Source of the DNA: Acidimicrobiia bacterium
GTDB taxonomy: Bacteria > Actinomycetota > Acidimicrobiia > Acidimicrobiales > Aldehydirespiratoraceae
Direction: 5' to 3'
Length of the DNA: 64,000 nucleotides
Assembly: GCA_022821685.1 (NCBI GenBank)
Contig: JAJEDD010000041.1
Span: 41,486 to 105,485 of the forward strand
The position numbers and the translations under genes are program-made. This document shows positions 5,780 through 33,419 of the stretch, piece after piece (positions within the stretch are counted from its first letter, which is position 1; each line of letters starts with the position of its first letter). The notes under the pieces are model-generated. The model saw only the letters and a list, made by a program, of their open reading frames with translations. It made no database searches and was not told the origin of the DNA.

Positions 5780-5791
5780 CGCCGCCCTCAA

Positions 5792-5879
5792 CTGGCCCGA
5801 GCAACCCGTGAGCAGCGAACAAGAGCGGGAATGACCCAACTGCGCCGCGACGGACTCTCGCCAATGTTGCGTTCGCTCT
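5792..5879 (-). repeat. Partial copy of the MITE-like intergenic repeat
   Basis: ctggcccgagcaacccgtgagcagcgaacaagagcgggaatgacc...gttcgctct aligns with the inner and right part of the 6812..6963 copy. Confidence 0.6.
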
Positions 5880-5903
5880 TCGACGGTGACCCGCCGCGTG
5901 GCC

Positions 5904-6794: not shown

Positions 6795-6811
6795 GGCTGT
6801 TGCGGGCTCCC

Positions 6812-6963
6812 GGAGGCCGAGCGAATAGGCGCTGGATCCAGCCGACACGGGCGAGGCCGTGGGCTGTGCTGTCGGGGTTTGGGCGGCCCGTGAGCGCAGC
6901 GAACAAGAGCGAGCATGACACCGCTGCGACCCGACTGGCCCCGCACCTATCTGCGCTCGCTCT
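6812..6963 (-). mobile_element. MITE-like TIR-bounded intergenic repeat, full copy
   Basis: It starts ggaggccgagcgaatagg and ends cacctatctgcgctcgctct (imperfect terminal inverted repeats). The interior is the reverse complement of the 15179..15315 copy. Confidence 0.75.
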
Positions 6964-7675: not shown

Positions 7676-7770
7676 CGCGGCACCCTACCCCAGCCTCCCG
7701 CAGGACAGGCTGCTGGCACGACGGTCTAGCCTGCGGTCGGTTCGGTAGCGAACGAATCGAGATAACGGCA

Positions 7771-8334
7771 ATGAACCACCAGGCCGACCCGAGTGACAAC
7801 GCCGCACCAAGAGACGCTCGGGAGCGATCCGCGCCTGCTCCCCGCCTGCTCGACGCCGAGCGCCTCATCGAGGAACGCCTCGGCGATCGGCCGCTCGACT
7901 TCGACTCGATGCTGGCCGTGTCGAACATCTACCGGGCCGCGACCGCGGTGCGCCGCCGGGCCGAGCAGGGCGTGCTGTCGGAACTCGGCCTCTCCTGGGG
8001 CGGCTTCACCACGCTGTGGGTGCTGTGGGTGTGGGGGCAGATGCAGACCGCGGACCTGGCCGACGAGTGCGACCTGTCCAAGGGAACCCTCACCGGCGTG
8101 GTCAAGACGCTGGAGAAGCGAGGCTTCGTGGAGCGCCGCCCGGTGGAGGCCGACCGCCGGCGGGTGACCGTGGCCCTCACCGACGCGGGCGTCGCAACCA
8201 TCGAGAAGCTCTTTCCCCGCTTCAACCGCTACGAGGGTCAGATGGTGAGCGCACTCACAACCGCCGAGAAGCAGGAGCTGGCCGAGTTGTTGCGCCGGGT
8301 GATCGTCACCGCGGCCAAGAGGCCGAGCGAATAG
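7771..8334 (+). CDS. MarR-family transcriptional regulator
   Basis: Winged-HTH MarR core (TADLADECDLSKGTLTGVVKTLEKRGFVERRPVEADRRRVTVALTDAG). Confidence 0.85.
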   Translation: MNHQADPSDNAAPRDARERSAPAPRLLDAERLIEERLGDRPLDFDSMLAVSNIYRAATAVRRRAEQGVLSELGLSWGGFTTLWVLWVWGQMQTADLADECDLSKGTLTGVVKTLEKRGFVERRPVEADRRRVTVALTDAGVATIEKLFPRFNRYEGQMVSALTTAEKQELAELLRRVIVTAAKRPSE

Positions 8335-8336
8335 GC
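8318..8336 (-). repeat. Solo TIR of the MITE-like repeat
   Basis: agaggccgagcgaatagg. It provides the MarR C-terminus ..RPSE*. Confidence 0.5.
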
Positions 8337-8388
8337 GGACAGCGGCTTGACGGTTGATCGTTCGGGGCCAAACGAATAGGGTCTCGGC

Positions 8389-9207
8389 GTGGTTGAGCTT
8401 CAGGGGTTCATGTATCCGAGGACGCCGACCGGGTCCGCGGGCATCGTGCCGCCGCCGCCGTGGCACTACTCCGGCGACATGCTCACGGTGGAGTACCGCA
8501 CCGATCCCGACCGGGTGGCCGAGCTGCTGCCCGAGCCCCTCGAGCCCGCCGACGACGATCCCGGCGCGGTGGCCATGGTCTGGGCCGAGTGGCAGAGCTG
8601 CGGCGACGACTTCGAGGAGCTGCTCGATCCGGTGCGGGCCCAGTACCGGGAGGTGTTCGCGGTGGTGCGCTGCCAGTTCCGGGGCTCCACCTACAGCCGG
8701 GCGGCCTACATCTGGGTGGACAAGGACTTCGCCATGGCCAGGGGCCACTTCCAGGGCTACCCCAAGAAGCTGGGCGAGATCGCCATGACCAGGCCGGTGA
8801 CGGTGGGGCGGGCCGGGCCGCGCCTGGAGGCGGGGGGCCGCTTCGGCGCCACCCTCAGCACTTGGGGGCGGCGCATCGCCGAGGCCCGGTTCACCATCGG
8901 TGGCACCGCGGAGTCGCCCGGATTCGTCAACAGCCATCCGATGCTGCACAGCCGGCAGATGCCGGCCATGGAGGCCGACGGCCGCGACGCGCTCGACGAA
9001 CTGGTCACCATGCGGGGCTACGACGCCGACCTCGGCCCGGTGTACGCCGGCGACGTTGAGCTGGTGCTGCCCGAGTGCCCCACCGAGGAGCTGCACCGCC
9101 TGCAGCCGGTGGAGATGATCGGCGGCTACTACCGCCAGGTCGGCATATCAATGGCCGCCGGCACCACTCTGTGGGCCGCCCCCAACCCGAGGGCCGCACC
9201 AGCATGA
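8389..9207 (+). CDS. Acetoacetate decarboxylase (ADC/MppR-like) family protein
   Basis: ADC-family features (PPPWHYSGDML.VEY.TDP..V..LLP.PLEP; ..WVDKDFAMARGHFQGYPKK). Confidence 0.7.
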   Translation: MVELQGFMYPRTPTGSAGIVPPPPWHYSGDMLTVEYRTDPDRVAELLPEPLEPADDDPGAVAMVWAEWQSCGDDFEELLDPVRAQYREVFAVVRCQFRGSTYSRAAYIWVDKDFAMARGHFQGYPKKLGEIAMTRPVTVGRAGPRLEAGGRFGATLSTWGRRIAEARFTIGGTAESPGFVNSHPMLHSRQMPAMEADGRDALDELVTMRGYDADLGPVYAGDVELVLPECPTEELHRLQPVEMIGGYYRQVGISMAAGTTLWAAPNPRAAPA

Positions 9208-9294
9208 ACCCTGCCATCTTCGTCGGCGACAACGACGACCACAGGGACGACTCGTGAGCACGGCCACCTGCGTCGACGACCACGGCGACCACCC

Positions 9295-10569
9295 GTGAAC
9301 ACCGCCAGCTACGTCGACGACTACCTGGCCGACCACGGCGACGGCGACGCCGACCTGGCGTCGCACGACTCGTTCACCTCCGGGGTGCCCCACGCCACCT
9401 TCACCCGGCTTCGCCGCCACGACCCGGTGCACTGGACCCCCGAGGCCGACGGCGCCGGATTCTGGTCGATCACCCGCTACCACGACGCCCTGGCCGTGAG
9501 CCGCGACGTGGACACGTTCACCTCCACCAAGGGCATACGCCTCGAGGAGATGGACGACGACGAGCTCGAGGCCCGCCGCACCATGATGGAGCTCGACCCG
9601 CCCGAGCACACCCGGCTGCGGCGCCTGGTGAACCGGGGCTTCACCCGCCGCACCGTCGAGTCCTACGAGGACTCCATCCGGGCCCTGGCCGCCGAGGTGC
9701 TCGACGAGGCCCTCGCCGCCGACGCCTTCGACTTCGTGACCGAGGTGGCGGCCAAGCTGCCCATGCGGATGCTGGGCCGGCTGCTGGGCACCAGCGACGC
9801 TGACGGCCACCAACTGGTCGAGTGGGGCGACGCCTTCCTGGGCAACAGCGATCCCGAGTTCACCACCCACGTCATCGACACGGCCGACACCGAGGAGTTC
9901 CGGCTGATGCCGTTCCGCAGCCCCGCCGCGGCCGAGGTGTTCGAGTACGCCGAGCAGCAGGCCGCAGAGCGCCGGGCCTGCCCCCGCCACGACGTGATCA
10001 CCCAGCTGCTGGCCCCCACCCGCGACGGCGAGCCCCTCAGCGACCTGGAGTTCAAGAACTTCTTCCTGCTGCTCATCGCGGCCGGCAACGACACCACCCG
10101 CTACACGATGACCCACGGGCTGCGCACCATGATGCAGCATCCCGGGCTGTGGCGGGCCTGGCGGGCCGACCCGACCCTCACCGCCACCGCGGTGGAGGAG
10201 ATACTGCGCACCAGCGCGGTGACCATGCACTTCCGCCGCACCGCGGCCCGGCCCGCCACCGTCGGCGGCAAGCGCATCGCCGCGGGCGACAAGGTGGTGA
10301 TCTGGTTCTGCTCGGCCAACCACGACGATGCCGGGTTCCCCCAGCCCTGGCGCTTCGACCTGGCCCGAGACCCCAACGACCACATGGCCTTCGGGCGCAA
10401 CGGACCGCACCTGTGCCTGGGCGCCTGGCTGGCCCGCATGGAGGCCCGGCTGGTGTTCGAGGAGCTGATGAAGCGGGTCGACCGGCTGGAGCCCGACGGC
10501 GAGCCCGACTACCTGCGCTCCAACTTCATCGCCGGCATCAAGCACCTGCCCGTGCGGGTGGTGGCGTGA
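9295..10569 (+). CDS. Cytochrome P450 (CYP125/CYP142-like)
   Basis: Heme loop FGRNGPHLCLGAWLAR, I-helix LLIAAGNDTTR, and LDPPEHTRLRRLV. Confidence 0.9.
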   Translation: MNTASYVDDYLADHGDGDADLASHDSFTSGVPHATFTRLRRHDPVHWTPEADGAGFWSITRYHDALAVSRDVDTFTSTKGIRLEEMDDDELEARRTMMELDPPEHTRLRRLVNRGFTRRTVESYEDSIRALAAEVLDEALAADAFDFVTEVAAKLPMRMLGRLLGTSDADGHQLVEWGDAFLGNSDPEFTTHVIDTADTEEFRLMPFRSPAAAEVFEYAEQQAAERRACPRHDVITQLLAPTRDGEPLSDLEFKNFFLLLIAAGNDTTRYTMTHGLRTMMQHPGLWRAWRADPTLTATAVEEILRTSAVTMHFRRTAARPATVGGKRIAAGDKVVIWFCSANHDDAGFPQPWRFDLARDPNDHMAFGRNGPHLCLGAWLARMEARLVFEELMKRVDRLEPDGEPDYLRSNFIAGIKHLPVRVVA

Positions 10570-10597
10570 TGCGCGGAATCGGGCCGGAGGGCTGCCG

Positions 10598-11458
10598 ATG
10601 GGTTCGATAGTGGGGGCGGCGGTGGTGTCGCACGTTCCGCCGCTGGTGATGCCCGAACAGGAGCGCCGAGCCCTCAACGGCGGCGAGGACACCACCCTGT
10701 TCGCGGGCCTGCACGCGCTGCGGGCCGAGCGGCTGGACCCCGCCGAGGCCGACACCGTGGTGGTGGTCGACACCCACTGGTTCACCACCGTCGAGCATGT
10801 CGTGACCGCCCATGAGCGCCGCCGGGGCCTGTTCACCTCCGACGAGCTGCCCCGGGGCATGTGCGCTGTGCCCTACGACATGCCCGGCGACCCCGAGCTG
10901 GCCCAAGCCTTCCAAGCCGCAGCCGCGGGCCGCAGCGACACCTGGGTCACCGCCACCGACGACCCGCACCTGCCGGTGCACTACCCCACCGTCAACCTGC
11001 TCGGCTTCCTGCAGGGCGACGAGCGCTGGGTGTCGATGGGCGTGTGCCAGACGGCCGAGCCCGCCGACTTCCTGCTGGCCGGCGAGTTGCTGGCCACCGC
11101 CGTGGCCGGCATCGACCGGCGGGTGGTGATCCTGGCCAGCGGCGGTCTCAGCCACCGGTTCTGGCCGCTGCGCCAGTTCCGCCACCACGAGGGCGCCGAC
11201 CCCGACCTGCACATCCGCACCCCCGAGGCCGCCGCCGCCGACCGCCGGGTGCTGGCCTGGATGGCCGCCGGCGACCACGCCGCCATCATCGACTTCCTGC
11301 CTGAGTACTCCCGCCACGCCCCCGAGGGCTACTTCGGCCACTACCTGACCATGGTGGGGGCGCTGGGCGGCCCGTCCTGCACGGCTCGGGGCACCCAGTT
11401 CGGCCAGTACGAGTCGGTGTCGGGCACCGGCCAGGCCCACGTATGGTTCGACCTGTGA
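10598..11458 (+). CDS. Class III extradiol ring-cleavage dioxygenase, LigB family
   Basis: LigB-type N-terminus (GAAVVSHVPPLV...VVVVDTHWF) and a size of about 286 aa. Confidence 0.7.
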   Translation: MGSIVGAAVVSHVPPLVMPEQERRALNGGEDTTLFAGLHALRAERLDPAEADTVVVVDTHWFTTVEHVVTAHERRRGLFTSDELPRGMCAVPYDMPGDPELAQAFQAAAAGRSDTWVTATDDPHLPVHYPTVNLLGFLQGDERWVSMGVCQTAEPADFLLAGELLATAVAGIDRRVVILASGGLSHRFWPLRQFRHHEGADPDLHIRTPEAAAADRRVLAWMAAGDHAAIIDFLPEYSRHAPEGYFGHYLTMVGALGGPSCTARGTQFGQYESVSGTGQAHVWFDL

Positions 11459-11531
11459 GCCGAGTGCCTGTGCGGACGACTCGAGTCCCTCCACCCGTGC
11501 GGGGATCGAGGCCTGAGACGGTGCACACCCT

Positions 11532-12251
11532 GTGAACACTGGCCAGCCCCGAGCCCTCGTGATTGCCCATGAGCCCCTGGGAGGAGGCGCGCTGGTGCAC
11601 ACGCTTCTCGCCGAGCGGGGCTACGACGTGCACGAGCATCAGGTCACCGCCGACTTCGACCGCCCCAACGACGCCGCGGCCTTCCCCGACCTGGCCGGCT
11701 ATGACGTGGTGGTGCCGATGGGCTCGGTCCGCTCGCTCACAGCCACCGACGAGATCGACAGCTGGATCTTCGAGGAGATCGACATTGTGCGCGCTGCCCA
11801 TGAGCGCGGCACTCCGATTCTCGGAATCTGCTTCGGCGCCCAACTGCTGGCCACCGCCCTCGGCGGGTCGGTGGAGCGCGCTCCGGTGACCGAGATCGGC
11901 TGGTACGAGATCTTCGAGCACGACGGATCAGTCAACCCGGTGGGGCCGGGGCCGTGGTTCCAATGGCACCACGACCGCTTCAAGGTGGCTGCGGATGCGC
12001 AGGTGCTGGCCGTCAACGACAACGCGGTACAGCTGTTCCGCAGTGAGCGCAGCGTGGGAACCCAGTTCCATCCCGAGGTGACCTACGAGCACCTGGAGGG
12101 GTTCCTGGCTGGAGCGAGCGAAGACTACGTCAACGAACACGGCATCGACCCGGCTCGACTCCTCGCGCAGATGCGCAGCAACGAGGAACGCAACGCCCGA
12201 CAGTGCGCCGCCCTAGTGGACTGGTTCCTCGACGAGGTGGCCGGCTCCTAG
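11532..12251 (+). CDS. Class I glutamine amidotransferase-like protein (GATase1)
   Basis: Nucleophile elbow GICFGAQLLA and the FHPE motif (GTQFHPEV). Confidence 0.8.
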   Translation: MNTGQPRALVIAHEPLGGGALVHTLLAERGYDVHEHQVTADFDRPNDAAAFPDLAGYDVVVPMGSVRSLTATDEIDSWIFEEIDIVRAAHERGTPILGICFGAQLLATALGGSVERAPVTEIGWYEIFEHDGSVNPVGPGPWFQWHHDRFKVAADAQVLAVNDNAVQLFRSERSVGTQFHPEVTYEHLEGFLAGASEDYVNEHGIDPARLLAQMRSNEERNARQCAALVDWFLDEVAGS

Positions 12252-12297
12252 AGCGAGCCGCCACAGATGCAAGCCCGTCGAGTCGCCGCGGCGTTCA
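12250..12297 (+). repeat. Partial copy (left about 45 bp) of the MITE-like repeat
   Basis: tagagcgagccgccacagatgcaagcccgtcgagtcgccgcggcg aligns with tagagcgagcgcggataggcacgagcccgtcgcgtcgcagcggtg at 56136. It lies between two convergent stop codons. Confidence 0.5.
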
Positions 12298-13653
12298 GTG
12301 GTAGGGCAGGTACTGCTTGAGCTCCCACTGCGTCAGGGGCTCGGTGCCATCGATGGCGTCCCAGTCGTCCACAGCCTCGTCGCCCGCCTCGGCGATGTAG
12401 CGGTCCCACTCGGCCCGCTTGTTGAACACGAAGTTGGCGCACAGCTCTGAGCCGACGGCCTCGCACAGGGCCTCGTCGGCCTCCATGTCGTCGAGGGCCG
12501 CGCTCAGGCTGTGGGCGCAATGGACGTCGGTGTCGACCTCCTCGAAGCCGTCGCCGGTCAGGGGCTCGGGGCACTCCAGCCCGCCCACGAAGCCGAGGCG
12601 GGCCGCCTGCAGCACGGTGGCCACCAGGGTGTGGAGGTTGGCCGCACCGTCGCCGATGCGGCTCTCGATGCGCATATGGGCTCCGGCGCCCCGTGGCACG
12701 CGGTTGCCGACGCAGCGGTGCTCCACCCCCCAGTTGGCCCAGTACCCGTTCAGATCGCCCGGGCGCAGGCGCCGGTAGGCGTTCACGGTGGGCGCGGCCA
12801 GCGCAGTCATGCCCCGGTGGTGATGCAGGAGCCCTCCCATGCAACCTCGGGCCAGATCAGACATGCCCGCCGCGCCGGCCTCGTCGGACATGGCGTTGTT
12901 GCCCTCGGCGTCGGCCAGCGAGAGGTTGACGTGCACGCCGGTGCCGGAGACGCCACCGAACGGCTTGCCTAAGAAAGTCAGATCCAGATCCAGGGGACGG
13001 CCGGAGGCGTCGGTGGAGGTCAGCACCGTCTCGCGGGCCAGCAGGCGGAACAGGAAGGCATTGTCGACGGCCCACATGGCGTCGCCGTATTCGAGGGTGA
13101 GCTCGAACTGGCCCTCGTCGAACTCGGCGTTGACCGACTCCACCGCGATGCCCGACGCCTCCGCCCGGCGCACCAGCTTGGTGATCACACCGTGAGGATC
13201 GGAGCCGACCCCGGTGCCGTACACCATGGAGCGCGGCGTCTCGTAGGGGCGGGGATCATCGAGGCCGCCGCTGAACACGTAGGCCTCCAGCTCTATGCCG
13301 ACCTTGGGGGTGTAGCCGAGGGCCTCCCAGTCGGCCACCGCCCGGCGCAGTGCCTCGCGGGGCGACACCGGCAGCGCCTCGCCGTGCATCCGCAGATCTC
13401 CGATGACCACGCCGGTGGATTCGTCGTCCCAGCCCTGCTGCACGGTGTCGGGGTCGAAGCTGACCTGGGTGTCGGGCAGCCCTTCCAGCAGGTAGGCGCC
13501 GGGCGCGGGCAGGAGGCTGCGGTCATAGCCCAGCGCGAACACGCACACGCAGTGGCCGGTGCCCCGATGGGCCAGCCGGGCCGGCAGGTACTTGCCGCGG
13601 GCCAGCCCCAGGTGATCGGGCCACAGCACCCGTATCCGGTCCCAGTCGCTCAT
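12295..13653 (-). CDS. Glutamine synthetase-family gamma-glutamyl-amine synthetase (PuuA/GlnA3-like)
   Basis: GS catalytic-domain motifs (GVGSDPHG; NAEFDEGQFE; GTGVHVNLSL; NRVPRG..RIESR). The start is set at the ATG at 13653 (MSDWDRIRVLWPD...). Confidence 0.85.
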   Translation of the reverse strand: MSDWDRIRVLWPDHLGLARGKYLPARLAHRGTGHCVCVFALGYDRSLLPAPGAYLLEGLPDTQVSFDPDTVQQGWDDESTGVVIGDLRMHGEALPVSPREALRRAVADWEALGYTPKVGIELEAYVFSGGLDDPRPYETPRSMVYGTGVGSDPHGVITKLVRRAEASGIAVESVNAEFDEGQFELTLEYGDAMWAVDNAFLFRLLARETVLTSTDASGRPLDLDLTFLGKPFGGVSGTGVHVNLSLADAEGNNAMSDEAGAAGMSDLARGCMGGLLHHHRGMTALAAPTVNAYRRLRPGDLNGYWANWGVEHRCVGNRVPRGAGAHMRIESRIGDGAANLHTLVATVLQAARLGFVGGLECPEPLTGDGFEEVDTDVHCAHSLSAALDDMEADEALCEAVGSELCANFVFNKRAEWDRYIAEAGDEAVDDWDAIDGTEPLTQWELKQYLPYH

Positions 13654-13689
13654 GGCAGCTCCCGCGGTGAACGTTCGGCCCCGAAAGGT

Positions 13690-13806
13690 AGCCCGCGCCG
13701 AGCCCGCAATCACACCGGCACGACAGGCCGAGCTGATCTCCGCTCGTTGGCTGCGCTCACCGGCCGCTCGGGCCAAGGTCTCGCAGACTCGCTCAGACTA
13801 GGCCGG
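13690..13806 (+). repeat. Diverged copy of the MITE-like intergenic repeat
   Basis: tctccgctcgttggctgcgctcaccggccgctcgggccaaggtctcg...actcgctcagactaggccgg aligns with the repeat core. The boundaries are approximate. Confidence 0.5.
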
Positions 13807-15018
13807 GGCTTCGTCCTGGTCGGGGTAGAGCCCGGTGCGGCCCAGGCGCTCCAGGCACACCTCTACGCTCCAGGGCAGCATGGCGGCCCCGCAGCGAGCG
13901 TCGCGGTAGGCCTGCTCCAGGTAGGAGGGCCGCAGCATGCTGCGTCCGCCGCACACCCGCAGCGCCAGCGACGCCACCGCGGGGGCGCCCTCCATCACCG
14001 TGACCACCGACGACCACGCCCGCCTCACCTGATCGGGGCTCGGATCGACGCCGCACTCGGCCAGCACCCGGTGGGTGAGCGCCTGGGCCCGGTCGTAGGT
14101 CAGGTTCATCTGGGCCCAGCCCTGCTGCTTGATGGGATGGTCCCGACGGGCGCCTCCGTCTCGCAGGTAGGCAGCGGTGGCGTCGAGAACGCCCCGCATG
14201 AGACCGAGATAGGCGAACGACAGCGTCATGTAGAAGTAGGGCCAGCGGATGGCGGCCTGATCGAAGGCGCCGGGCGGCAGCCACTCGTTGCCCTCGGGCA
14301 CGGCCGCCTCGTCGAGCACCAGCGTGCGGGAGTCGGTGCCCCGCATCCCCAGCGGATCCCATCGCCCCTCGATGGTGGCGCCGGGCGCGTCGGCGGGCAC
14401 GCCCATGAAGCGGATCCGGTCGTCGCCGGGCACCAGGCAGACCACGTTGTGGATGTGCGCCGCGCCCGACAGCGAGGCGAAGATCTTGCGGCCCGTCACC
14501 CGGTAGCCGCCGACGGCGGGAACGGCCCGGGTGGAGTAGCCCGCGGTGGCGCCCGCCGCCGCGCCCTCCGAGAAGGGCTGGCTGTGGATGGCGCCGTCGC
14601 GGACGATGCCTCGCCGCAGCTCGGCCCGGCGCTCGGCCAGCAGCGTCCGCTCGGCTGCGTCGAGGTCGAGGTCGTCGGCGATCTGGCCCACGAGGAGGGT
14701 GGTGGCGGTATGCATGTTGAAGGTCAGCGCGGTGGTGGCACAGTGCCGTCCCAGCTCCTCGGCCACGAGGGCGTAGGCCACGAAGTCGCCGCCGAGGCCC
14801 CCGTCGGCGACGGGGATGCACAGGCCGAGCAGGCCGGCTTCGCGTAACTCGACCCAATTCTGGGTGGGAAACGCAGCGTCGCGGTCGTGGGCCTCGGCCC
14901 GAGCCGCGAAGCCGGGACCCAGCGCCGCCATACGCTCCACCAGCTCGAGCCGCTGCGGCGTGTAGATGGGCGCGGTCACGGCCTGCGAGCCTAACGGTGG
15001 CTCTCCGGGCCGTGGCAT
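13798..15018 (-). CDS. Acyl-CoA dehydrogenase family protein
   Basis: ACAD-like N-terminal, middle and C-terminal regions (..FPTQNWVELREAGLLGL..; GYRVTGRKIFAS). The start is set at the ATG at 15018. Confidence 0.75.
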   Translation of the reverse strand: MPRPGEPPLGSQAVTAPIYTPQRLELVERMAALGPGFAARAEAHDRDAAFPTQNWVELREAGLLGLCIPVADGGLGGDFVAYALVAEELGRHCATTALTFNMHTATTLLVGQIADDLDLDAAERTLLAERRAELRRGIVRDGAIHSQPFSEGAAAGATAGYSTRAVPAVGGYRVTGRKIFASLSGAAHIHNVVCLVPGDDRIRFMGVPADAPGATIEGRWDPLGMRGTDSRTLVLDEAAVPEGNEWLPPGAFDQAAIRWPYFYMTLSFAYLGLMRGVLDATAAYLRDGGARRDHPIKQQGWAQMNLTYDRAQALTHRVLAECGVDPSPDQVRRAWSSVVTVMEGAPAVASLALRVCGGRSMLRPSYLEQAYRDARCGAAMLPWSVEVCLERLGRTGLYPDQDEAPA

Positions 15019-15178
15019 GGTGCTCCCGGCCAGCGGGTCCCCAGCTTGGCGCTCTGGCCGGCGGGTCCTGTCACGGGCGCGCCCAGGCGGCACGAGCGCC
15101 GCCATTGCTTGCCCCCGTGCCAACCCCCGGCCTCACCGGTCGCCCCCCGGCCCTGTCCAGAGCGATTCAGGTCGCTTG

Positions 15179-15315
15179 AGAGCGAGCGAAAATAGGTGAG
15201 AGCTGGTCGCGTCGCAGGGGGGTCATTCCCGCTCATGTTCGCTGCGCTCACGGGCCGCTCGGGCCACGGCCTCGCCCGTATGGGCCGGACTCGCTCACCT
15301 ATTCGCTCGGCCTCT
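15179..15315 (+). mobile_element. MITE-like TIR-bounded intergenic repeat, full copy
   Basis: The left end is agagcgagcgaaaataggtgag. The right end ctcacctattcgctcggcctct is its imperfect reverse complement. The element is 137 bp. Confidence 0.8.
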
Positions 15316-16284
15316 GAGGAAAGCGCGTGTCAGATGATTGACAGCATCGGCAGCCTCTGAGACAGCTAGATGGCCTATGCCGTCTAGGACTACGAGTTCC
15401 GCGTTCTTCAGCCCGTCGACAAGGATGCGGGCGTAGGCCACGGGGGTCTCTGCATCCAGCTCTCCGGCGATCACCAGGGCGGGAGCCTCGATCTCGGCCA
15501 AGCGGTCAACGACGTTGTGGTCAGGCAGACACTCGACCGCGGCCCGCAGGCCCGCGGTCGGGATGCGGGCGAAGCCGGCCGCCCGCATGGCCAGCATGTC
15601 GGCACTGAGGCCGGGGCCAGCGATTGAAGTGAGGACACCCTCGGCGATGTCGGCCGGCGTCAGGCCCGCGTCCAGGGGCGCCAGCCGGGCGGCTCGCCAG
15701 GCGTCGGGGTCGGTGCCGTCGAGCCCGAACGCTGCGCTGGTGTTGGCCAGCACCAGCCGGTCGACCCGATCGGGGTGACGCAGGGCGGCGTGCAGAGCGT
15801 GCATGCCGCCGAACGACTCCCCCACCAGATGGGCCCGCTCCACCCCGGCCGCGTCGAGCAGCCGGGCCACCGCATCGGCGATGGCGGCGAGGGTCAAGGG
15901 CGTCACCGGTGCCGAGGCGCCGTAACCGGGCATGTCCCATGCGATGCATCGGAACGTGCCGCTCAAGCCTTCAAGCTGCGGCGCCCATGAGGTGCGCGAG
16001 CCTCCGAGGCCGTGAAGGAACACCACCGCGTCACCCTGACCCTGCTCGCGCCAAGCCAGAGGCCCGTCCACATCGACGGCGGCGCCTTGGCCCTGACCCC
16101 CACCGGCCAAGGGCCCGTTCACATCCACAGCATCGCCTTGACCCTGCTTGCCACCGGCCTGCGGGCGGTCCGCATCAACGGCGACGTGGGCCCGGCGGTC
16201 CATGTCGGTGTCACGCTCGGGCTGTCGGCCCCTGCGGCTGTTGGACATGCTCGGAACGTACACTCTCGGCTGTGGCGACGGCAC
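15295..16284 (-). CDS. Alpha/beta hydrolase with a triplicated N-terminal segment
   Basis: VVFLHGLGGS oxyanion region and nucleophile elbow GESFGG. The true start is uncertain (16284, 16248 or 16203). The C-terminal ..RGRANR* is read from the repeat TIR. Confidence 0.8.
   Translation of the reverse strand: MPSPQPRVYVPSMSNSRRGRQPERDTDMDRRAHVAVDADRPQAGGKQGQGDAVDVNGPLAGGGQGQGAAVDVDGPLAWREQGQGDAVVFLHGLGGSRTSWAPQLEGLSGTFRCIAWDMPGYGASAPVTPLTLAAIADAVARLLDAAGVERAHLVGESFGGMHALHAALRHPDRVDRLVLANTSAAFGLDGTDPDAWRAARLAPLDAGLTPADIAEGVLTSIAGPGLSADMLAMRAAGFARIPTAGLRAAVECLPDHNVVDRLAEIEAPALVIAGELDAETPVAYARILVDGLKNAELVVLDGIGHLAVSEAADAVNHLTRAFLRGRANR
16027..16179 (-). repeat. Tandem repeat, 3 x 51 bp, in frame in the 5' part of the hydrolase gene
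   Basis: The units are 16129-16179, 16078-16128 and 16027-16077. They encode VDADRPQAGGKQGQGDA, VDVNGPLAGGGQGQGAA and VDVDGPLAWREQGQGDA. Confidence 0.85.
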
Positions 16285-16976
16285 CGCTGATCGGCATCTC
16301 GGGGAGAACCCGCACCGCAGGCGAGATCGACCTGAAGCCCCGCTCGCTTCAAGCCTGCGATGTGGACCTGTACTTCTGCGACTACGCCCGCGCGGTGCTG
16401 GCGGCGGGCGGACTGCCGGTGTACCTGCCCACCAGCGCCGACCCGGCCGACTACGCCGAGCGTTTGGACGGGCTGGTGCTCACCGGCGGCGCCGACATCG
16501 AGCCCCAGCGCTACGGGCAGGTGGCCAATGCCGAGCTGTACACCCCGGAGCCGGCCCGCGACGCCTTCGAGATGGCCCTGTTGGACGGAGCGGCCCGATC
16601 GGGAGCGCCGGTGCTGGGCATCTGCCGGGGCATCCAGGTGTTCAACGTCCACGGCGGCGGAACCCTCCACCAACACGTCGCCGCCCACGCCGGCTTCGAC
16701 CGGCCCAGCACCCGCCTCCACAGTGTCAAACTCGCCGAGGGCTCGCTGGCCGAGTCGTTGTACGGGCCGTCGATTGAGGTCAATTCGCTGCACCACCAGA
16801 CCATCGACCAACTCGCCGACGGCTACGAGATCACCGGCCGCAGCGACGACGGCGCCATAGAGGCCATCGAAGCCCACGACCGGCCCTGGATCGGCCTCCA
16901 GTGGCACCCCGAGCTGCTCGACTCCCGAGACACCGACCCCGCCTTCACCTGGCTAGTAGCGGCCTCCCGTCCCTAA
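16272..16976 (+). CDS. Gamma-glutamyl-gamma-aminobutyrate hydrolase family protein (PuuD-like, peptidase C26)
   Basis: GGADIEP, the nucleophile in GICRGIQV, and WHPE (LQWHPE). The GTG at 16272 (VATAPLIGISG) is preferred. The upstream part of the track ORF is antisense to the hydrolase repeat. Confidence 0.8.
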   Translation: MATAPLIGISGRTRTAGEIDLKPRSLQACDVDLYFCDYARAVLAAGGLPVYLPTSADPADYAERLDGLVLTGGADIEPQRYGQVANAELYTPEPARDAFEMALLDGAARSGAPVLGICRGIQVFNVHGGGTLHQHVAAHAGFDRPSTRLHSVKLAEGSLAESLYGPSIEVNSLHHQTIDQLADGYEITGRSDDGAIEAIEAHDRPWIGLQWHPELLDSRDTDPAFTWLVAASRP

Positions 16977-26707: not shown

Positions 26708-27691
26708 ATGGCCGGGTCCATCGCAGAGCTGGTGGCCACCAAGGGATACCTGGTGGCCGACGGGGCGATGGGCACCCAGCTCTTCGCGGCGGGCCTCACC
26801 GCTGGCGATGCGCCCGAGGCCTGGAACGTCCACCACGCCGAACAGGTGCGAGCCGTCCATCGGGCCTACTTGCGGGCCGGAGCCGACTTGGTGGTGACCA
26901 ACAGCTTCGGAGGAAACCGTTTCCGCCTGGCTCTGCACGACCTCGATGACAGGGTAGTTGAACTCAACGAGGCCGCGGCCCGCAACGCCCGCATTGAGGC
27001 CGACGCAGAAACCGAGCGGACCGGCCGGCCAACGCTGGCGGCGGGATCGATGGGGCCGACCGGCTCTCTGCTGGCGCCGCTGGGCGACATGTCGGCCGCC
27101 GAGTGCGAGGCCGCCTTCGCCGAACAGGCCACAGGCCTGGCCGAGGGCGGCGCCGATCTGCTGTGGGTCGAGACGATGAGCGACCTCGACGAGCTGGAGG
27201 CGGCGGTGCGGGGGGCCCGCTCGGCCTGCGACCTTCCCGTGGCCGCCACCATGAGCTTCGACACCGCGGGCCGAACCATGATGGGCGTCACCGGCGCAGA
27301 CCTGGCCGAGCGGCTCGGCGGGCTGGGCCTGGCCGCGGTGGGCGCCAACTGCGGCAACAACATCGCCGACACCGAGGCCGCCGCGGTGGCGATTGCGGCC
27401 GCATGTGCGGATACCCCGGTGGTCTCCAAGCCCAACGCGGGAATCCCGGTGTGGAGCGATGACGCGCTGGTCTACGACGGCACCCCCGACGTGCTGGCCG
27501 CCCACGCCCACCGGGCTCGAGCCGCGGGCGCAGCCGTGATCGGCAGCTGCTGCGGCAGCACCCCGGCCCACACCGCCAAGATGGCGGCCGTGCTAAGAGG
27601 CGACGAGCCCCCGCCCGAGTCGACGCCTCGGACCGCGACGGCGCTCACCGAGGACCGCTCGACCCGCCGCCGAAACCGCCGCCGCCGCTGA
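26708..27691 (+). CDS. Homocysteine S-methyltransferase family protein (Hcy-binding domain, MetH N-terminal/BHMT-like)
   Basis: LVADGAMGT, VVTNSFG, GANCG and GSCCGSTP (zinc-ligand cysteines). Confidence 0.8.
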   Translation: MAGSIAELVATKGYLVADGAMGTQLFAAGLTAGDAPEAWNVHHAEQVRAVHRAYLRAGADLVVTNSFGGNRFRLALHDLDDRVVELNEAAARNARIEADAETERTGRPTLAAGSMGPTGSLLAPLGDMSAAECEAAFAEQATGLAEGGADLLWVETMSDLDELEAAVRGARSACDLPVAATMSFDTAGRTMMGVTGADLAERLGGLGLAAVGANCGNNIADTEAAAVAIAAACADTPVVSKPNAGIPVWSDDALVYDGTPDVLAAHAHRARAAGAAVIGSCCGSTPAHTAKMAAVLRGDEPPPESTPRTATALTEDRSTRRRNRRRR

Positions 27692-27829: not shown

Positions 27830-29857
27830 ATGATCCACGCCCGAAGCGGTGCGAGGACCGGGTTGTTGAGCTTGATCGACGAACTCGTCCTGGCCCTCCT
27901 CAACGAGGAGAGCGGCTACTTTCGCCAAGTACCCGGCTGGAATCTGAACTGCGCCGTCGTCGGCGCGGCACTGGCCGAGCTGTCGCTCATGTCGCGCATC
28001 GACACCGACATGGACTCCCTGATCCTTCTGGATGCGACCGCGACCGGCGACCGGGCGCTCGATCCCGCCCTCGAAGAGATCGCGGCCGAGCCCGTTCAGC
28101 ACAACGCCCAGTACTGGATCGAGCGGCTCGCTCCCCAGGCGGAATCGATCATCGACATGACGCTCGACCGGCTGGTCGACCTGAGGATCCTCCACCATCA
28201 CGACGGCGACTTCTGGTCGCTGGCCGGAGCCGCCTGGAGGATGGAACTCCACCAGGGATCCGAGGAGGGCACGGCCGTCGAGCACGTCAAGACCCGCATC
28301 AGCAGAGCCATCTTCAACAACGAGATCCCCGATCCGAGAGACATAATCATCATCTGTTTGATCGACACCTGCGACGTGCTGCGCCTCATCTTCGAACTCG
28401 ACGAGGAGGCCGAAGAACGCGTCCGGGCCATCCTCAAGATGGACTTGATCGGTCGAGCCATCGCCGCGGCGGTGGCACAGAACATTGCGGGGCGGTTGTT
28501 CGGGCCGACCGCTCTGGCCAAGCCGATTCCCGTCGTCCCGCTGCGGAGGCTGCTGCGCAGCAAACAGATCCGGTCCGGCAACCTGCCCGCATTCTTCGCC
28601 GAACTGCACCAAGAGTTCGGCCCGGTGTTCGAGATACGGCCGCCGGTGGCTCAGAACATGATCTGCCTCGCTGGTCCGGACACGAACCAGTGGGTGCACC
28701 GTCAAGGCCGCATGCACCTGAGAGCCAGGGACTATCTGGAGGACTTCGAGAAGGTCTACGGCGGGGTGGGGCTGCTGCCCGCCCTCGACGGCGCCGACCA
28801 CTTCCGGTATCGAAAGTTCATTCAGCCCGCGTATTCGCGCACCAGGGTGGAGGACCGGCTGGACGAGTTCCTCAGCCGCGCCCGCCACGACATGGCGGCC
28901 TGGAGTGTCGGGGAGACGCGCCATGCGGTGGGGATGTGCCGCAAGCTGGTCAACGCCGCCATGTCGCCGCTGTTTGTCGGCATCGACTCCCAAGACATCG
29001 TCGACGACATGCACAAGTTCAAGGACCGGGCCCTCAAGACGCACGTCGGCCGAACCCTGCCCAAGTTCATGCTGAAGACCCCGGCCATGAGGCGCCGAGC
29101 GAAACAGATCGACGAGGTGATGGACCGGGTGCTCAACGTCCATACCCCCGCCCAGCGGGTCGGCTGTCCCCGGGATCTGGCCGACGAGCTGCTGACCATG
29201 CACAACAACGATCAGCAGTTCCTGCCGGAGTCGAATCTTCGGTTCGTGCTGTCGGCGCCGCTGATCGCCAGCATGTACGTGGGCGACCAGCTCAGCTTCG
29301 CCGCATTCGCCATGGTGTCGCAGCCCGAGTTCTACGACAGGATCCGGGCCGAGGCCGACTCGGTGTTCGCGGCCGGCGACCCGGACGGCGAGACGCTCAC
29401 CGGGCCGTCCACAGACGTGACTCGCCGGTTCATCATGGAGTGTCTGCGCCTCTACCCGATCGTCCCGCTGTCGGTCCGCAACGTGATGAACGCCTGCGAG
29501 GTGGAGGGCTACCAGCTGCCCGAGGGCAGGCGCGTCTTCATTGCACAGACGGCAACGCACTACATGGCCGACCTCTTTCCCGACCCGTTCAGATTCGACA
29601 TCGACCGCTATGCGGAGCCCCGCAAAGAGCATGTCGGCACCGGATACTCGCCCTACGGATTGGGCACCCACACCTGCCTCGGCGCCCGATTGACGGAAAT
29701 GTACCTGGCCACCAACCTGCTGTTGATGGCGCACTACTTCATGTTCGAGATCGCCCCCAAGAACTACAAGCTGAGGATCAGCCCGTTCCCGTCGATGTCG
29801 CCGAACAAGAAGCTGAAGTTCCGCATCTCCGAGCGCAGGCGCGACCTACCCGCCTGA
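27830..29857 (+). CDS. GPP34/GOLPH3-like domain fused to a cytochrome P450
   Basis: The N-terminal about 200 aa look GPP34-like (LIDELVLALLNEESGYF...NCAVVGAALAELSLMSRID...LDPALEEI). The C-terminal part is a P450 (ExxR in ECLRLYP; heme loop YSPYGLGTHTCLGARL). Confidence 0.75.
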   Translation: MIHARSGARTGLLSLIDELVLALLNEESGYFRQVPGWNLNCAVVGAALAELSLMSRIDTDMDSLILLDATATGDRALDPALEEIAAEPVQHNAQYWIERLAPQAESIIDMTLDRLVDLRILHHHDGDFWSLAGAAWRMELHQGSEEGTAVEHVKTRISRAIFNNEIPDPRDIIIICLIDTCDVLRLIFELDEEAEERVRAILKMDLIGRAIAAAVAQNIAGRLFGPTALAKPIPVVPLRRLLRSKQIRSGNLPAFFAELHQEFGPVFEIRPPVAQNMICLAGPDTNQWVHRQGRMHLRARDYLEDFEKVYGGVGLLPALDGADHFRYRKFIQPAYSRTRVEDRLDEFLSRARHDMAAWSVGETRHAVGMCRKLVNAAMSPLFVGIDSQDIVDDMHKFKDRALKTHVGRTLPKFMLKTPAMRRRAKQIDEVMDRVLNVHTPAQRVGCPRDLADELLTMHNNDQQFLPESNLRFVLSAPLIASMYVGDQLSFAAFAMVSQPEFYDRIRAEADSVFAAGDPDGETLTGPSTDVTRRFIMECLRLYPIVPLSVRNVMNACEVEGYQLPEGRRVFIAQTATHYMADLFPDPFRFDIDRYAEPRKEHVGTGYSPYGLGTHTCLGARLTEMYLATNLLLMAHYFMFEIAPKNYKLRISPFPSMSPNKKLKFRISERRRDLPA

Positions 29858-32308
29858 CCCGCGCCGGTCCCGGTGCTCGGCTACCACGTCGAGGTCGTCC
29901 CAGAGCCTCTGCACTGTGGAGCGCAAGCGCATGTTCTCGTAGGCGCCCCACACGGTCATCGCGGGCGGCACCACCAGGATGGACACGAGCAGCGAGTAGG
30001 CGATGGCGACCGCCGCGGTGACGCCGAACTGCTGGGTCCCCGCCAGCGGCGAGAACACCAGCACCCCGAACCCGAGCGCGGTCGTGAGGGCGGAGCCCAG
30101 CAGGGCCGAGCCGGTGGTGGCGAGCGTGCGTACCGCGGCCTGCTCGGGATTGCGGACCCGGGCGAACTCCTCTCGGTAGCGGTGGATCACATGGATGGTG
30201 TAGTCCACGCCGATCCCGATCGAGAGCGCTGTGATGATCGAGGTGATCAGCCCGTAGGGAATGCCCAGCAGGGCCATGGTGCCGAGGATCCAGATGAGAA
30301 CCAGCACGATGGGCCCGACCGCGATCACCCCCAGCATCGGCCGGCGCAGCGTCACCCAGAAGAAGAGGATCAGGATGCCCAGAGCGACGGCCACGGTGGA
30401 GGTGATCGCCTCGGTCTGGCGCGACGTGATCTGTTCGGTGACGGTGACCGACAGGATGCTCATCGAAGTGGCGGTGATGGCGTCGTCGTCGCCGGCCCAG
30501 AGCGCCTCGATCTCGTCCTGCAGCACGGCGGTGGCGCCGGGATCGTCGGTGTAGGTCGGGAACTGCAGCAAGATGGCATCGATGCCTCCGGGATCGTTGA
30601 CCAGAACGTTGGCCGTGGCCGGATCGGTGGCTTCGAGCCGGTCCAGGAACTCCTGCATCCCGGCCGGATCGAGCTGCACCCCGGCGGAGGCCTCGGCGAA
30701 CAGTGCCGCCAGCGCGGGGTCGTACTTGTCGCCGGGCTCGCCGCTGTCGTGGGTCCAGTCGTGCGCCAGCGACACGTACGACGCTTCCAGCGGCCCCGCC
30801 GCAGCCCGCGGCCGGCGCTGCTCATCGGCGAAGGCGGCGGCCAAGTCCTGAATGTTCAGCAGCGTGCGGGCCTCGGTGGCCTCGGCTCTCACCAGCACGC
30901 TGGCCAGCTCAGTCGACCCTCCGACGGCGGTGTCGAGGGACTCCAAGTCGTTCATCACGCTGCCGTCGCGGGGCAAGATGTCTCGGATGCTGAACTCCGA
31001 GTGGAGCCCGGTGGCCGCGAATCCGAGCGCGACAGTCACGCCGAGCACCACAATGAGGTACGGGGCCGGCCGGCGGGCCACGCTGGCGCCGAGAGCCCTG
31101 GCCACCGGCTCGATTCCGGGCAGCGAGCTCGACACCGAGCGGGGCGGACGCAGCTTGCCTCGCGCCTCCCGCCGCCGGTCGACGATGGTCCGGCCGGCCG
31201 GGACCAGCGTCAGCATGACGATCAGGCTCAACCCCACCCCCAGCCCGGCCACGATTCCGAAATCGCCGATCACGTCTATCGGCGAGAACAGGGTGGCCAG
31301 GAAGCTGGCGATGGTGGTGGCGGCCGCCAGTGTCAGCGGGCTGGCGACTTTGCGCAGGCCGTTGCGGACCGCCTCCAGGACCGGCTCGCCGTCTGCCCGC
31401 TGCTCGCGGTAGTGCGACACGGCCTGGATCGCATAGTCCACCGTGAGGCTGATCACGATGATCGGCACCATCGTGGTGAGCGAGCTGGGCGGACCGATCC
31501 AGCCGAGCCCGTCGGGTCCGAGCCAGCCCTCCGCCCCGACGATCCAGACCAGCGAGAAGACCAGGCCGGTGAGCGTGAGCAGCAGATCCGACAGCGTTCG
31601 CAGGAACACCACGATCAGCGCCGCGATCAGCAGCAGGGCCAGGCCGACCAGCGGCGCCATGCCGGTCTCGATGGCCTCGGTGTACTCGTCCTCGATCACG
31701 ATGGGCGACAGGCTGCTCACTTGCAGCACGCCCGCCGAGGCATCGGCCAGGTCGCTGATCGTCCGCTCCGCCACCGCGGTGTCGTCCGTGTTCTTCAGGC
31801 GGACGGTGGCGATCGCCACCGGTGTGCCGTCGGCGTCGGTCCCCGACATGGCGTCGAGCGCCCCGCCGATCTCACCGACGCTGCGGACCTCGTCGATCTC
31901 TGCCTGGGTGATCGAGCCGATGTCGACACCGGTCGCGACCCCGATCAGTGACGAGGGCGAGATGATCGGATCGGCCGGCGCCAGCAGCGGAATCACGCTC
32001 GGATCGCTGGCAATGGCGCCGATGAGGGCGTCCATCTGCTGGAGTCCGCCGGGAGTGAATGCGTCGCCGCGGAAGACGAGTGTGACGACATTGACATCGC
32101 TGGACTCGCCGAAGAACTCGTCGAGTTCGGAGACCGCGGCGGCGATGGCGCTGCCCGGCGGCAAGAACGCCACCGAGGCCCCTTCGATCGGCGGCACGCG
32201 CCGGGTCGCCCCCGCGGCCAGAACAACGGTGACGACGAGCAGAACGAGGATCGTGACGTACGGGCGAACCGTGATGAACCGACTGAACCTGCCGAGGACG
32301 CGGTTCAT
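29846..32308 (-). CDS. MMPL/RND-family membrane transporter
   Basis: Two six-helix hydrophobic bundles separated by soluble domains, the MMPL/SSD pattern (..LSIGIGVDYTIHVIHRYRE..; ..ISLTVDYAIQAVSHYRE..). The start is set at the ATG at 32308 (MNRVLGRFSRFI...). Confidence 0.85.
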   Translation of the reverse strand: MNRVLGRFSRFITVRPYVTILVLLVVTVVLAAGATRRVPPIEGASVAFLPPGSAIAAAVSELDEFFGESSDVNVVTLVFRGDAFTPGGLQQMDALIGAIASDPSVIPLLAPADPIISPSSLIGVATGVDIGSITQAEIDEVRSVGEIGGALDAMSGTDADGTPVAIATVRLKNTDDTAVAERTISDLADASAGVLQVSSLSPIVIEDEYTEAIETGMAPLVGLALLLIAALIVVFLRTLSDLLLTLTGLVFSLVWIVGAEGWLGPDGLGWIGPPSSLTTMVPIIVISLTVDYAIQAVSHYREQRADGEPVLEAVRNGLRKVASPLTLAAATTIASFLATLFSPIDVIGDFGIVAGLGVGLSLIVMLTLVPAGRTIVDRRREARGKLRPPRSVSSSLPGIEPVARALGASVARRPAPYLIVVLGVTVALGFAATGLHSEFSIRDILPRDGSVMNDLESLDTAVGGSTELASVLVRAEATEARTLLNIQDLAAAFADEQRRPRAAAGPLEASYVSLAHDWTHDSGEPGDKYDPALAALFAEASAGVQLDPAGMQEFLDRLEATDPATANVLVNDPGGIDAILLQFPTYTDDPGATAVLQDEIEALWAGDDDAITATSMSILSVTVTEQITSRQTEAITSTVAVALGILILFFWVTLRRPMLGVIAVGPIVLVLIWILGTMALLGIPYGLITSIITALSIGIGVDYTIHVIHRYREEFARVRNPEQAAVRTLATTGSALLGSALTTALGFGVLVFSPLAGTQQFGVTAAVAIAYSLLVSILVVPPAMTVWGAYENMRLRSTVQRLWDDLDVVAEHRDRRGSGG

Positions 32309-32375
32309 GGAGCGCCACCGTAGCAGCGCCCCTCTCGGCCTCGGCCCGCGGAGTCCCACCGGTAGGGTGCCGCCA

Positions 32376-33419
32376 ATGAGCAAGCTGTCACGAGTCTTCG
32401 CCGGGCTGCGGGCCGCGGACCGGGTCGGCGGTGGAGTCGACCGTCGGATGCGGCGCTTCGACGACTGGCTCGACCGGGCTTCGGTGCGCAACGGCGGCGC
32501 GACGGACTACGACCACACCGAGACCGTCCGGGAGTACTACGAGATTTGCAACGATCTGATGGTGTGGGGTTGGGGCGAGTCGCTGCACTTCGCGCCGCTG
32601 TTGCCCGGCGAGAGCGTGAACGACTCCAAGATCCGCCACCAGCGACTGATGATCGACAAGCTGGAACTGCGCTCCGACATGACGGTGGTGGACGTCGGCT
32701 GCGGGATCGGCGGACCGATGCGCCGGGTCGTCTCGGAGACCGGCGTGAGGGTGGTCGGAGTCAACATCAATGAGGTGCAGATGGACCTGACCAGGTCGTT
32801 GAACGCCGAGGCGGGGCTCGACCACATGGTCGACTGCCTGGTGTGCAGCTTCATGGACATGGCCGACGTTGCGGACGACACCTTCGACCGCGGCTACGCA
32901 ATCGAATCAACCATCCATGCGCCCGACAAGGCGGGTGCATTCGCCGAGATCTACCGGGTGCTCAAGCCCGGAGCCCTCTTCTGGGGTCAAGAGTTCTGCA
33001 TGACGGAACGGTTCGATCCCGGCAACGACCAGCATCTGGCCATGAAGCGAGACTTGATGCACGGCATCGCTCTGCACGACATCGCCACCACCGGCGAAGT
33101 GGACCGGGCGCTCGCAGCGGCGGGATTCGAGGTCATCGAGGGGGTGGATCGAGGCGCCGCCGGCAACGGTGCGGCCACGCCCTGGTATCAGCCTCTGGAG
33201 ACCTGGAAGCCGAGGTTGGGCAATTCGCTGATCGGGGTGCCGCTCGGCCGCAAGGCGGCCATCGCCGGATCCAGGCTGGCCGAGTTGCTGCGAATCTTCC
33301 CGAAGGGCTCCGCCGACGTGGTCAAGATGCTGGATCAGACCGCCAGCGCCTACGTCGCCGGAGGCAAGTCACAGATCTTCACCCCGCTGTACTGCTTCCT
33401 GGCCCGCAAACCCCTCTAG
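32376..33419 (+). CDS. ERG6/SMT-like (sterol 24-C-methyltransferase family) SAM-dependent methyltransferase
   Basis: SMT signature regions are present: VWGWGESLHFAP (cf. YEYGWGxSFHF), VVDVGCGIGGPMR and YAIESTIHAP (cf. YAIEATCHAP). Only the last 347 aa of track ORF 31443..33419 are credible. Confidence 0.8.
   Translation: MSKLSRVFAGLRAADRVGGGVDRRMRRFDDWLDRASVRNGGATDYDHTETVREYYEICNDLMVWGWGESLHFAPLLPGESVNDSKIRHQRLMIDKLELRSDMTVVDVGCGIGGPMRRVVSETGVRVVGVNINEVQMDLTRSLNAEAGLDHMVDCLVCSFMDMADVADDTFDRGYAIESTIHAPDKAGAFAEIYRVLKPGALFWGQEFCMTERFDPGNDQHLAMKRDLMHGIALHDIATTGEVDRALAAAGFEVIEGVDRGAAGNGAATPWYQPLETWKPRLGNSLIGVPLGRKAAIAGSRLAELLRIFPKGSADVVKMLDQTASAYVAGGKSQIFTPLYCFLARKPL

Follow-up and report, generated by a model that had tools for sequence, protein, structure and literature searches.

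A GPP34–cytochrome P450 fusion, a pump, and a sterol-methyltransferase homolog as a probable reduced copy of a mobile cassette of sponge-associated bacteria

INTRODUCTION

In a stretch of 64,000 nt from an Acidimicrobiia bacterium (the window; positions 41,486 to 105,485 of contig JAJEDD010000041.1, assembly GCA_022821685.1), three genes lie side by side. They encode a fusion of a GPP34 domain to a cytochrome P450, a transporter of the resistance-nodulation-division (RND) superfamily, and a homolog of sterol methyltransferases (SMTs). As judged from sequence comparisons, the three genes represent, in reduced form, a cassette that moves horizontally among sponge-associated bacteria of many phyla. 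In our judgment, the chances are about even that this cassette would tailor and transport a sterol-like membrane lipid. The fusion and the SMT neighborhood are each already in print (PMC11706023, PMC8237579), and what the window contributes is another, reduced example of a known cassette, namely a minimal version of three genes with a pump of the monoderm type.

RESULTS

Gene neighborhood of the fusion across phyla

With the fusion as anchor and one genome per species, a scan gave 80 loci with fusion identities of 55%–96%. They belong to Acidimicrobiia, Dehalococcoidia, Gemmatimonadota, Latescibacterota, Thermodesulfobacteriota, Binatia, Gammaproteobacteria, Rhodospirillaceae, Rhodothermaceae, and Ca. 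Poriferisodalis. Clustering of all open reading frames (ORFs) of these loci leads to five recurrent families: G, the GPP34–P450 fusion; T, the MMPL/HAE3 pump (Acidimicrobiia and Dehalococcoidia); M, the SMT homolog (eight lineages); R, a KshA-like Rieske protein with a KshA_C domain (PF19298, 83 bits; eight lineages); and F, a flavin adenine dinucleotide (FAD) amine-oxidase-like protein of 462 aa (four groups as labeled, one of them probably Acidimicrobiia). The nearest solved relatives of R are KshA enzymes, 3-ketosteroid 9-alpha-hydroxylases (4.5e-22), and F resembles LkcE and the fatty-acid isomerase 2b9w of P. acnes. All five families occur together at seven Dehalococcoidia loci. The combination of G, M, and R is present in Latescibacterota, Binatia, Gammaproteobacteria, and Rhodospirillaceae, that of F, G, and M in Thermodesulfobacteriota, and the window holds the subset G, T, and M.

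The same families adjoin in dozens of unrelated genomes, so that the cluster of the window is not due to chance. Across 81 fusion-anchored loci from about 10 phyla or classes, the order and the orientation of the genes vary between lineages, which argues that selection, and not inheritance alone, maintains the linkage. The original prediction, made from the letters of the window, had proposed a linked cluster for lipid tailoring and transport; the genes are indeed co-conserved across phyla.

In the reverse test, metagenome contigs with a flank of at least 8 kb were anchored on the SMT and the neighbors within 10 kb were counted. The SMT homolog of the window belongs to a distinct clade (clade A, see below). 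Among 26 contigs with a clade A SMT, the fusion is present on 14 and an oxidosqualene cyclase (OSC) on one. Among 17 contigs with a canonical SMT, the OSC is present on five and the fusion on two, both of which carry a clade A copy as well. A clade A SMT occurs in 12 of 12 carrier genomes examined, adjoining the fusion or elsewhere. These include all five Acidimicrobiia genomes without an SMT within 10 kb of the fusion, in two of which the clade A gene is 17–20 kb off. On three contigs (L098, L099, and L158), the module adjoins canonical SMT genes, with an OSC also beside them on L099 and L158.

The proteins of the window were also compared with those of five genomes of other phyla, with SucD and PurH of the same genomes as controls. 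Between phyla, the identities are 56%–63% for G, 59%–70% for M, and 65%–70% for T, against 48%–54% for SucD and 47%–54% for PurH. The cassette exceeds both controls, which points to horizontal mobility. In the window, the GC contents of the fusion (64.3%) and of the SMT homolog (65.4%) are about 7–8 points below those of the flanks (72.8% for a homocysteine S-methyltransferase gene and 72.6% for purH), and the pump is intermediate (69.1%). Neighborhood counts, cross-phylum identities, and GC contrast together bear the marks of a functional unit that was transferred horizontally.

In most Acidimicrobiia carriers (L005–L020, L024, and L070), a class I P450 (about 430 aa) is found upstream of the fusion, often with another copy behind the pump. 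In the window, this P450 is absent within 10 kb.

Organization of the three genes

The features are collected in Table 1. The fusion and pump genes are convergent and their stop regions share 12 nt (29846–29857), and the pump and methyltransferase genes are divergent. This arrangement, as well as the three gene identities, had been proposed in the original prediction, and both coordinates and matches to Pfam and NCBIfam models agree with it. On the minus strand, the open frame of the pump (29846–32491) extends past the ATG at 32308 up to a TTG at 32491. The ATG is the likely start, with a length that agrees with those of the homologs. The start of the SMT homolog agrees with the alignment of its homologs.

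Table 1. Features of the three-gene cluster, in positions of the window
Feature	Position	Strand	Remarks
GPP34–cytochrome P450 fusion ("GPP34_L")	27830–29857	+	675 aa; Pfam hits to both domains
GPP34 domain of the fusion	about 27872–28477	+	PF05719, residues 15–216
P450 domain of the fusion	about 28550–29812	+	PF00067, residues 241–661
Heme-ligand loop YGLGTHTCLG of the fusion	29654–29683	+	Cys616
Single-component RND-superfamily transporter (MMPL/HAE3 type, sterol-sensing-type domains)	29846–32308	-	820 aa from ATG 32308
Divergent spacer, pump start to methyltransferase start	32309–32375		67 bp; presumed shared promoter region
"Clade A" SMT homolog	32376–33419	+	347 aa; Sterol_MT_C domain
Region I WGWGESLHF of the SMT homolog	32565–32591	+	

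The GPP34–P450 fusion

The N-terminal domain matches the hidden Markov model PF05719 with 105.8 bits (cut-off 29.1), as had been expected from the sequence alone, and the P450 domain matches PF00067 with 121.4 bits. In profile searches, the N-terminal part finds GOLPH3 (3kn1, E 5.8e-8) and Vps74 (4e-6). The original prediction knew of no described fusion of this kind; one has in fact been described, as GPP34_L, with 656 proteins found only in sponge symbionts of many phyla (Ferreira et al. 2025, Microbiome, PMC11706023). The protein of the window, with both domains in one frame and from a sponge-associated bacterium, is a member: architecture, ecology, and taxa (Acidimicrobiia and others) are the same. 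The name of one Dehalococcoidia carrier (L071, isolate Plut_88894) looks like that of a metagenome-assembled genome (MAG) of a coral, Porites lutea, in which case the fusion would not be strictly confined to sponges, contrary to PMC11706023. Several genomes have two or three tandem copies of the fusion gene (L015–L019, L034, L040, L042, L074, L081, and L082).

The P450 part contains the Cys-ligand loop (FxxGxHxCxG), the EXXR motif, and a PERF-like motif of the P450 family. In 25 homologs of the fusion from about 10 phyla, EXXR (E537-x-x-R540), the FDIDRY motif, and Cys616 are invariant. The mean column identity across these homologs is 73%, and both domains are equally conserved. The usual I-helix motif, [AG]-G-x-[DE]-T-[TS], is absent: The consensus of the fusions is LIASMY[LV]GDx[LF]S, with no Thr in the register of CYP184A1 or CYP51. 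The missing Thr suggests a non-standard oxygen chemistry of the P450.

The AlphaFold2 model of the fusion is moderately confident (mean predicted local distance difference test score, pLDDT, 77.8; predicted template modeling score, pTM, 0.67). The nearest folds are those of CYP184A1 (in complex with oleic acid), then CYP51 and CYP102. The identity to CYP184A1 and CYP51 is 20%–22%, and to any solved P450 it is at most 22%. An identity as CYP51 was rejected, with only 20%–22% identity to the structures of the M. capsulatus enzyme and with the signature AGQHTS absent. The fold search with the full-length model returned P450s only and no GOLPH3 match, so that the assignment of the GPP34 fold rests on sequence profiles. 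The linker between the domains (IPxVPL...GNLP...YGPVF) may be likened, in our reading, to the hinge that follows the membrane anchor in E-class P450s.

The SMT homolog and its clade

The methyltransferase has a Class I S-adenosylmethionine (SAM) methyltransferase domain followed by Sterol_MT_C, the order of the SMT family. Sterol_MT_C (PF08498) matches with 58.8 bits (cut-off 21.7) and Methyltransf_11 with 58.2 bits; there is also a match to the cyclopropane/mycolic acid synthase (CMAS) family (1.4e-14). The three signature blocks noted in the original prediction are present: WGWGESLHF (Region I), VDVGCGIGGP (Region II, with DxGxGxxGP), and YAIESTIHAP (Region III, with its glutamate). The alignment of homologs shows no variation at residues D106, G108, G110, G113, P114, and E177.

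In a tree of 115 homologs, the enzyme groups with SMTs, as predicted, and falls into a clade of 71 members (clade A) on a branch with a support of 100* and a length of 0.77, set apart from the OSC-linked canonical SMTs. The SMT-anchored metagenome scan shows the same separation, with matches at 57%–79% identity and then a gap down to 49% or less. The metagenome matches are in records LXNI, LXNJ, MKWU, JGIcombinedJ30088, and the Ga0209xxx series, of which LXNI, LXNJ, JGIcombinedJ30088, and the Ga0209021 series are sponge metagenomes (table of Brown et al. 2023, PMC10070321). The sterol side-chain methyltransferases described from uncultured and sponge-symbiont bacteria (Brown et al. 2023; Brown and Welander 2025) share with the enzyme of the window the domains, the conserved Regions II and III, and the same sponge metagenomes. 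However, the enzyme of the window lies apart from the canonical SMTs, in a clade of its own with no more than about 49% identity to them, and this clade is linked to the GPP34–P450 set, whereas canonical SMTs are linked to OSC. It is 40%–46% identical to the canonical type of the assayed contigs LXNJ01014139 and LXNI01004480 (Brown et al.), and none of the tested contigs named in PMC10070321 and in Brown and Welander (2025) is in clade A.

The main difference is in the sterol-binding Region I. Every SMT with activity in vitro has shown the motif GWGxxFHF there (Brown and Welander 2025, preprint); the enzyme of the window has GWGESLHF. Clade A reads [WF]GW[GSN]ESLHF, against YEYGWGxSFHF in canonical enzymes. 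In every readable member of the clade, Leu replaces Phe; in some, the third Gly is Ser or Asn; and ahead of the motif M-V-W/F replaces Y-E-Y. At three loci (L049, L073, and L074), two SMT genes of different clades stand side by side.

The pump

The pump matches MMPL (PF03176, two stretches), Patched, and the sterol-sensing domain in Pfam, and HAE3 (TIGR00921, 212 bits) in NCBIfam. The nearest solved chains are HpnN (6wu0, 5e-14), Patched-1, and MmpL3. The scores stay far below the equivalog cut-offs for HpnN (TIGR03480, 114 vs. 752 bits), NF052374 (79.5 vs. 1100 bits), and BstA (45 vs. 1400 bits), and only the superfamily-level models, MMPL and HAE3, match. Like HpnN (hopanoid) and BstA (sterol), the pump is a predicted twelve-helix RND-type lipid transporter with sterol-sensing-type domains; it differs from them as a distinct MMPL/HAE3-like subfamily and has no partner proteins here.

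Orthologs stand directly beside the fusion at 22 Acidimicrobiia and 12 Dehalococcoidia loci (65%–97% identity over about 820 aa). In Gemmatimonadota and Latescibacterota, an AcrB-type pump takes the place of the MMPL type beside the fusion, and in Binatia and Rhodospirillaceae a different MMPL pump does. This swapping for other RND-superfamily pumps argues that a pump is integral to the gene set.

The genome and the flanking genes

The closest relatives of the fusion come from sponge Acidimicrobiia MAGs (70%–96% identity). The top one, 96% identical, is from Ca. Aldehydirespirator sp., at a locus otherwise syntenic. The bacterium of the window is a sponge-associated member of the Acidimicrobiia near Ca. 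Aldehydirespirator. The clade A enzyme is the sole SMT of its genome. In the same genome, no ortholog of the FAD oxidoreductase was found, and none of the Rieske protein either, with only marginal KshA_C matches of at most 24 bits.

The genome has a second GPP34 gene of the short form (235 aa, 161 bits; G000 contig C23:70625–71332; L180 9625–10332). It is placed between a ribonucleotide reductase and an insertion sequence (DDE) transposase, with a 2-oxoglutarate oxygenase as a further neighbor and no lipid genes nearby; it was therefore rejected as a clue to a lipid role.

The flanks of the cluster are ordinary. The left one encodes a luciferase-like monooxygenase and a homocysteine S-methyltransferase, and the right one holds purH and sucDC. 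The homocysteine S-methyltransferase gene (26708–27691; PF02574, 216 bits) is 138 bp upstream of the fusion on the same strand, and it occurs beside the fusion also in the 96%-identical relative (L004) and in no other carrier. It could supply the methyl cycle for the SMT homolog or be an incidental neighbor. Farther upstream, the block 4304–16976 encodes a homoprotocatechuate-like aromatic catabolism (HpaD/HpaE/HpaG type); it also includes genes for a gamma-glutamyl ligase and for an MppR-like enzyme. A role of this block in steroid catabolism ("CYP125-like") was rejected: The genes are of the HpaD/E/G type and the P450 matches no steroid equivalog.

DISCUSSION

Origin and nature of the substrate

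An OSC, in the cluster or in the genome, marks a cluster for de novo sterol biosynthesis. No match to the squalene-hopene/oxidosqualene cyclase family (PF13243) was found in the genome of the bacterium (3.19 Mb, 96.4% complete), and control genomes do match. Seven of 10 other carriers also lack any squalene or oxidosqualene cyclase, and six of these seven are on records titled as assembled chromosomes. The three cyclase-bearing carriers include two that also hold a canonical SMT. With no cyclase in this genome and in 7 of 10 other carriers, the substrate is probably not made by the bacterium. The majority of carriers do not cyclize the lipid themselves, and a sterol would come from the sponge host or from neighboring organisms.

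A sterol-like substrate is suggested by the SMT family of M, the KshA-like nature of R, the likeness of T to HpnN and Patched, and the module adjoining canonical SMT and OSC genes on some contigs. We propose the following scheme. A sterol, or a similar polycyclic or isoprenoid lipid, would be taken from the sponge or its community and reside in the cytoplasmic membrane. The clade A enzyme would C-methylate it at an olefin with SAM, and the P450 would oxidize or rearrange it. The N-terminal GPP34 domain, placed like the anchor of microsomal P450s, would dock the P450 on the membrane or present the lipid to it. The MMPL/HAE3-type pump would transport either the substrate or the product between the membrane and the outside of the cell. 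The fuller cassettes of other lineages would add a KshA-like Rieske oxygenase and an FAD oxidoreductase. Substrate class, order of the reactions, direction of transport, and role of GPP34 are all predicted in this scheme from gene content and homology.

Several observations weigh against a sterol-like substrate. Region I of clade A departs from the motif common to the active SMTs, so that the usual delta-24 sterols may not be substrates of the clade, and perhaps no sterol is. The I-helix of the P450 is without the usual acid–Thr pair and an ordinary hydroxylation is not assured; the P450 is also distant from all solved P450s, and oleic acid is the ligand in its top structural match. The window contains neither the Rieske gene nor the FAD gene, with no orthologs in the genome. 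RND pumps are usually exporters, and the uptake of a sterol of the sponge would need another route.

Alternative explanations

The cassette could act instead on a non-sterol lipid made by the bacterium, with the product exported to the envelope. Candidates would be unsaturated fatty acyl chains and acyclic isoprenoids, for example squalene. In the acyl variant, mid-chain methyl-branched or oxidized fatty acids would result. Several of the points above fit such a lipid: the lack of a cyclase in this genome and in most carriers, the match of the methyltransferase to the CMAS family, the altered Region I, the structural neighbors of the P450 (CYP184A1 with oleic acid, then the fatty-acid hydroxylases CYP102), and the likeness of the FAD partner to LkcE and 2b9w. 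However, the Sterol_MT_C score is far over its cut-off, and the methyltransferase shares 40%–46% identity with SMT types that have been assayed; the Rieske partner is KshA-like; the module adjoins canonical SMT genes on three contigs, with the OSC beside on two; and the set is limited to animal-associated bacteria and is not general. We regard a bacterial non-sterol lipid as unlikely. The original prediction had suggested that the substrate may be a non-sterol lipid, with no cyclase visible in the window. The lack of a cyclase stands and extends to the whole genome, but the non-sterol substrate is now less favored because of the KshA-like Rieske protein, the sterol-sensing-type pump nearest to HpnN, and the module beside OSC and canonical SMT on some contigs.

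A second alternative is detoxification, in which the enzymes would modify a toxic metabolite of the sponge or its symbionts (a bioactive terpenoid or steroid) and the pump would expel it, protecting the bacterium. The combination of P450, methyltransferase, and RND efflux pump is typical of xenobiotic handling, the pump is of the AcrB type in Gram-negative carriers, and the set is found only in chemically rich hosts. Yet the fusion is extremely conserved between phyla (mean column identity, 73%), as would be expected for a single defined substrate more than for a broad detoxification, and SMT-family enzymes are not known as detoxifiers. This explanation seems to us quite improbable.

The last alternative concerns the GPP34 domain. 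In human GOLPH3, W81, R90, R171, and R174 are the residues of the pocket for phosphatidylinositol 4-phosphate (PI4P). In the profile alignment, a remote homology with a local confidence of about 0.7–0.99, R90, R171, and R174 correspond to V44, E105, and I108 of the fusion, positions that are never basic in the 25 homologs; W81 lands in a poorly aligned stretch, with the invariant W37 of the fusion two residues off. The PI4P-pocket residues are thus not conserved in this alignment. The fusion has no signal peptide, and its N-terminus is the first helix of the GPP34/GOLPH3 core fold. A heme enzyme that needs ferredoxin partners is unlikely as a secreted effector, and we favor for GPP34, from these comparisons, an intracellular membrane-docking or lipid-presenting role.

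The published proposal casts GPP34 as an effector that is secreted, attaches to the PI4P of the host, and keeps phagosomes from maturing; the neighboring genes would then be incidental (PMC11706023). It draws on the report of the fusion from sponge symbionts only and on the binding of PI4P by eukaryotic GOLPH3, and the homology to GOLPH3 and Vps74 is real; but with the PI4P-binding arginines aligned to V, E, and I, no signal peptide, a fused P450 in need of heme and cytoplasmic redox partners, a linkage to lipid enzymes and pumps kept across about 10 lineages, and no test of binding residues, signal peptides, or secretion reported in that paper, we consider it very unlikely. Neighborhood, missing PI4P residues, and lack of a signal peptide point here to an intracellular lipid enzyme.

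Relation to described systems

The main text of PMC11706023 does not mention sterols, methyltransferases, or MMPL/RND neighbors. Bacterial SMT genes have been reported to be often accompanied by three uncharacterized genes, maybe of an unknown steroid pathway (Hoshino and Gaucher 2021, PNAS, PMC8237579, main text). That main text mentions neither a pump nor a GPP34 domain, and the window differs in having no Rieske gene. In Ircinia symbionts, horizontally transferred ERG24–CYP51–OSC clusters with a flanking SMT have been described (Kelly et al. 2022, PMC9531527). Like the cassette, they are sterol-related clusters that moved horizontally, in the same hosts and in the same list of bacterial phyla. 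They differ as clusters of de novo biosynthesis around an OSC, whereas the genome here has no OSC and the P450 is not CYP51. We considered whether the "CYP51" cluster of that report could be a misannotated cassette; this is probably not the case, and real OSC-linked clusters beside canonical SMTs are distinct.

In the literature searched, we found no paper that ties GPP34 to sterols in sponges. Nor did we find there the argument from the PI4P residues, the cyclase counts, the definition of clade A with controlled counts, or the swapping of pump types.

Implications

A more far-reaching version is that symbionts without a cyclase remodel sterols of their sponge host via the cassette, which would be the missing enzymology of the "sponge-only" side chains (26-methyl, cyclopropyl, and higher-alkylated). 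We hold this to be a long shot. If true, such biomarker lipids would be products of the holobiont and not of the animal alone. If the substrate of the cassette is a sterol, a metabolic role would replace the published idea of a PI4P effector for the GPP34–P450 proteins. Bacteria without a sterol synthesis of their own would then edit and move the sterols of their hosts, which would bear on who makes the unusual sterols of sponges and on the interpretation of sterane biomarkers.

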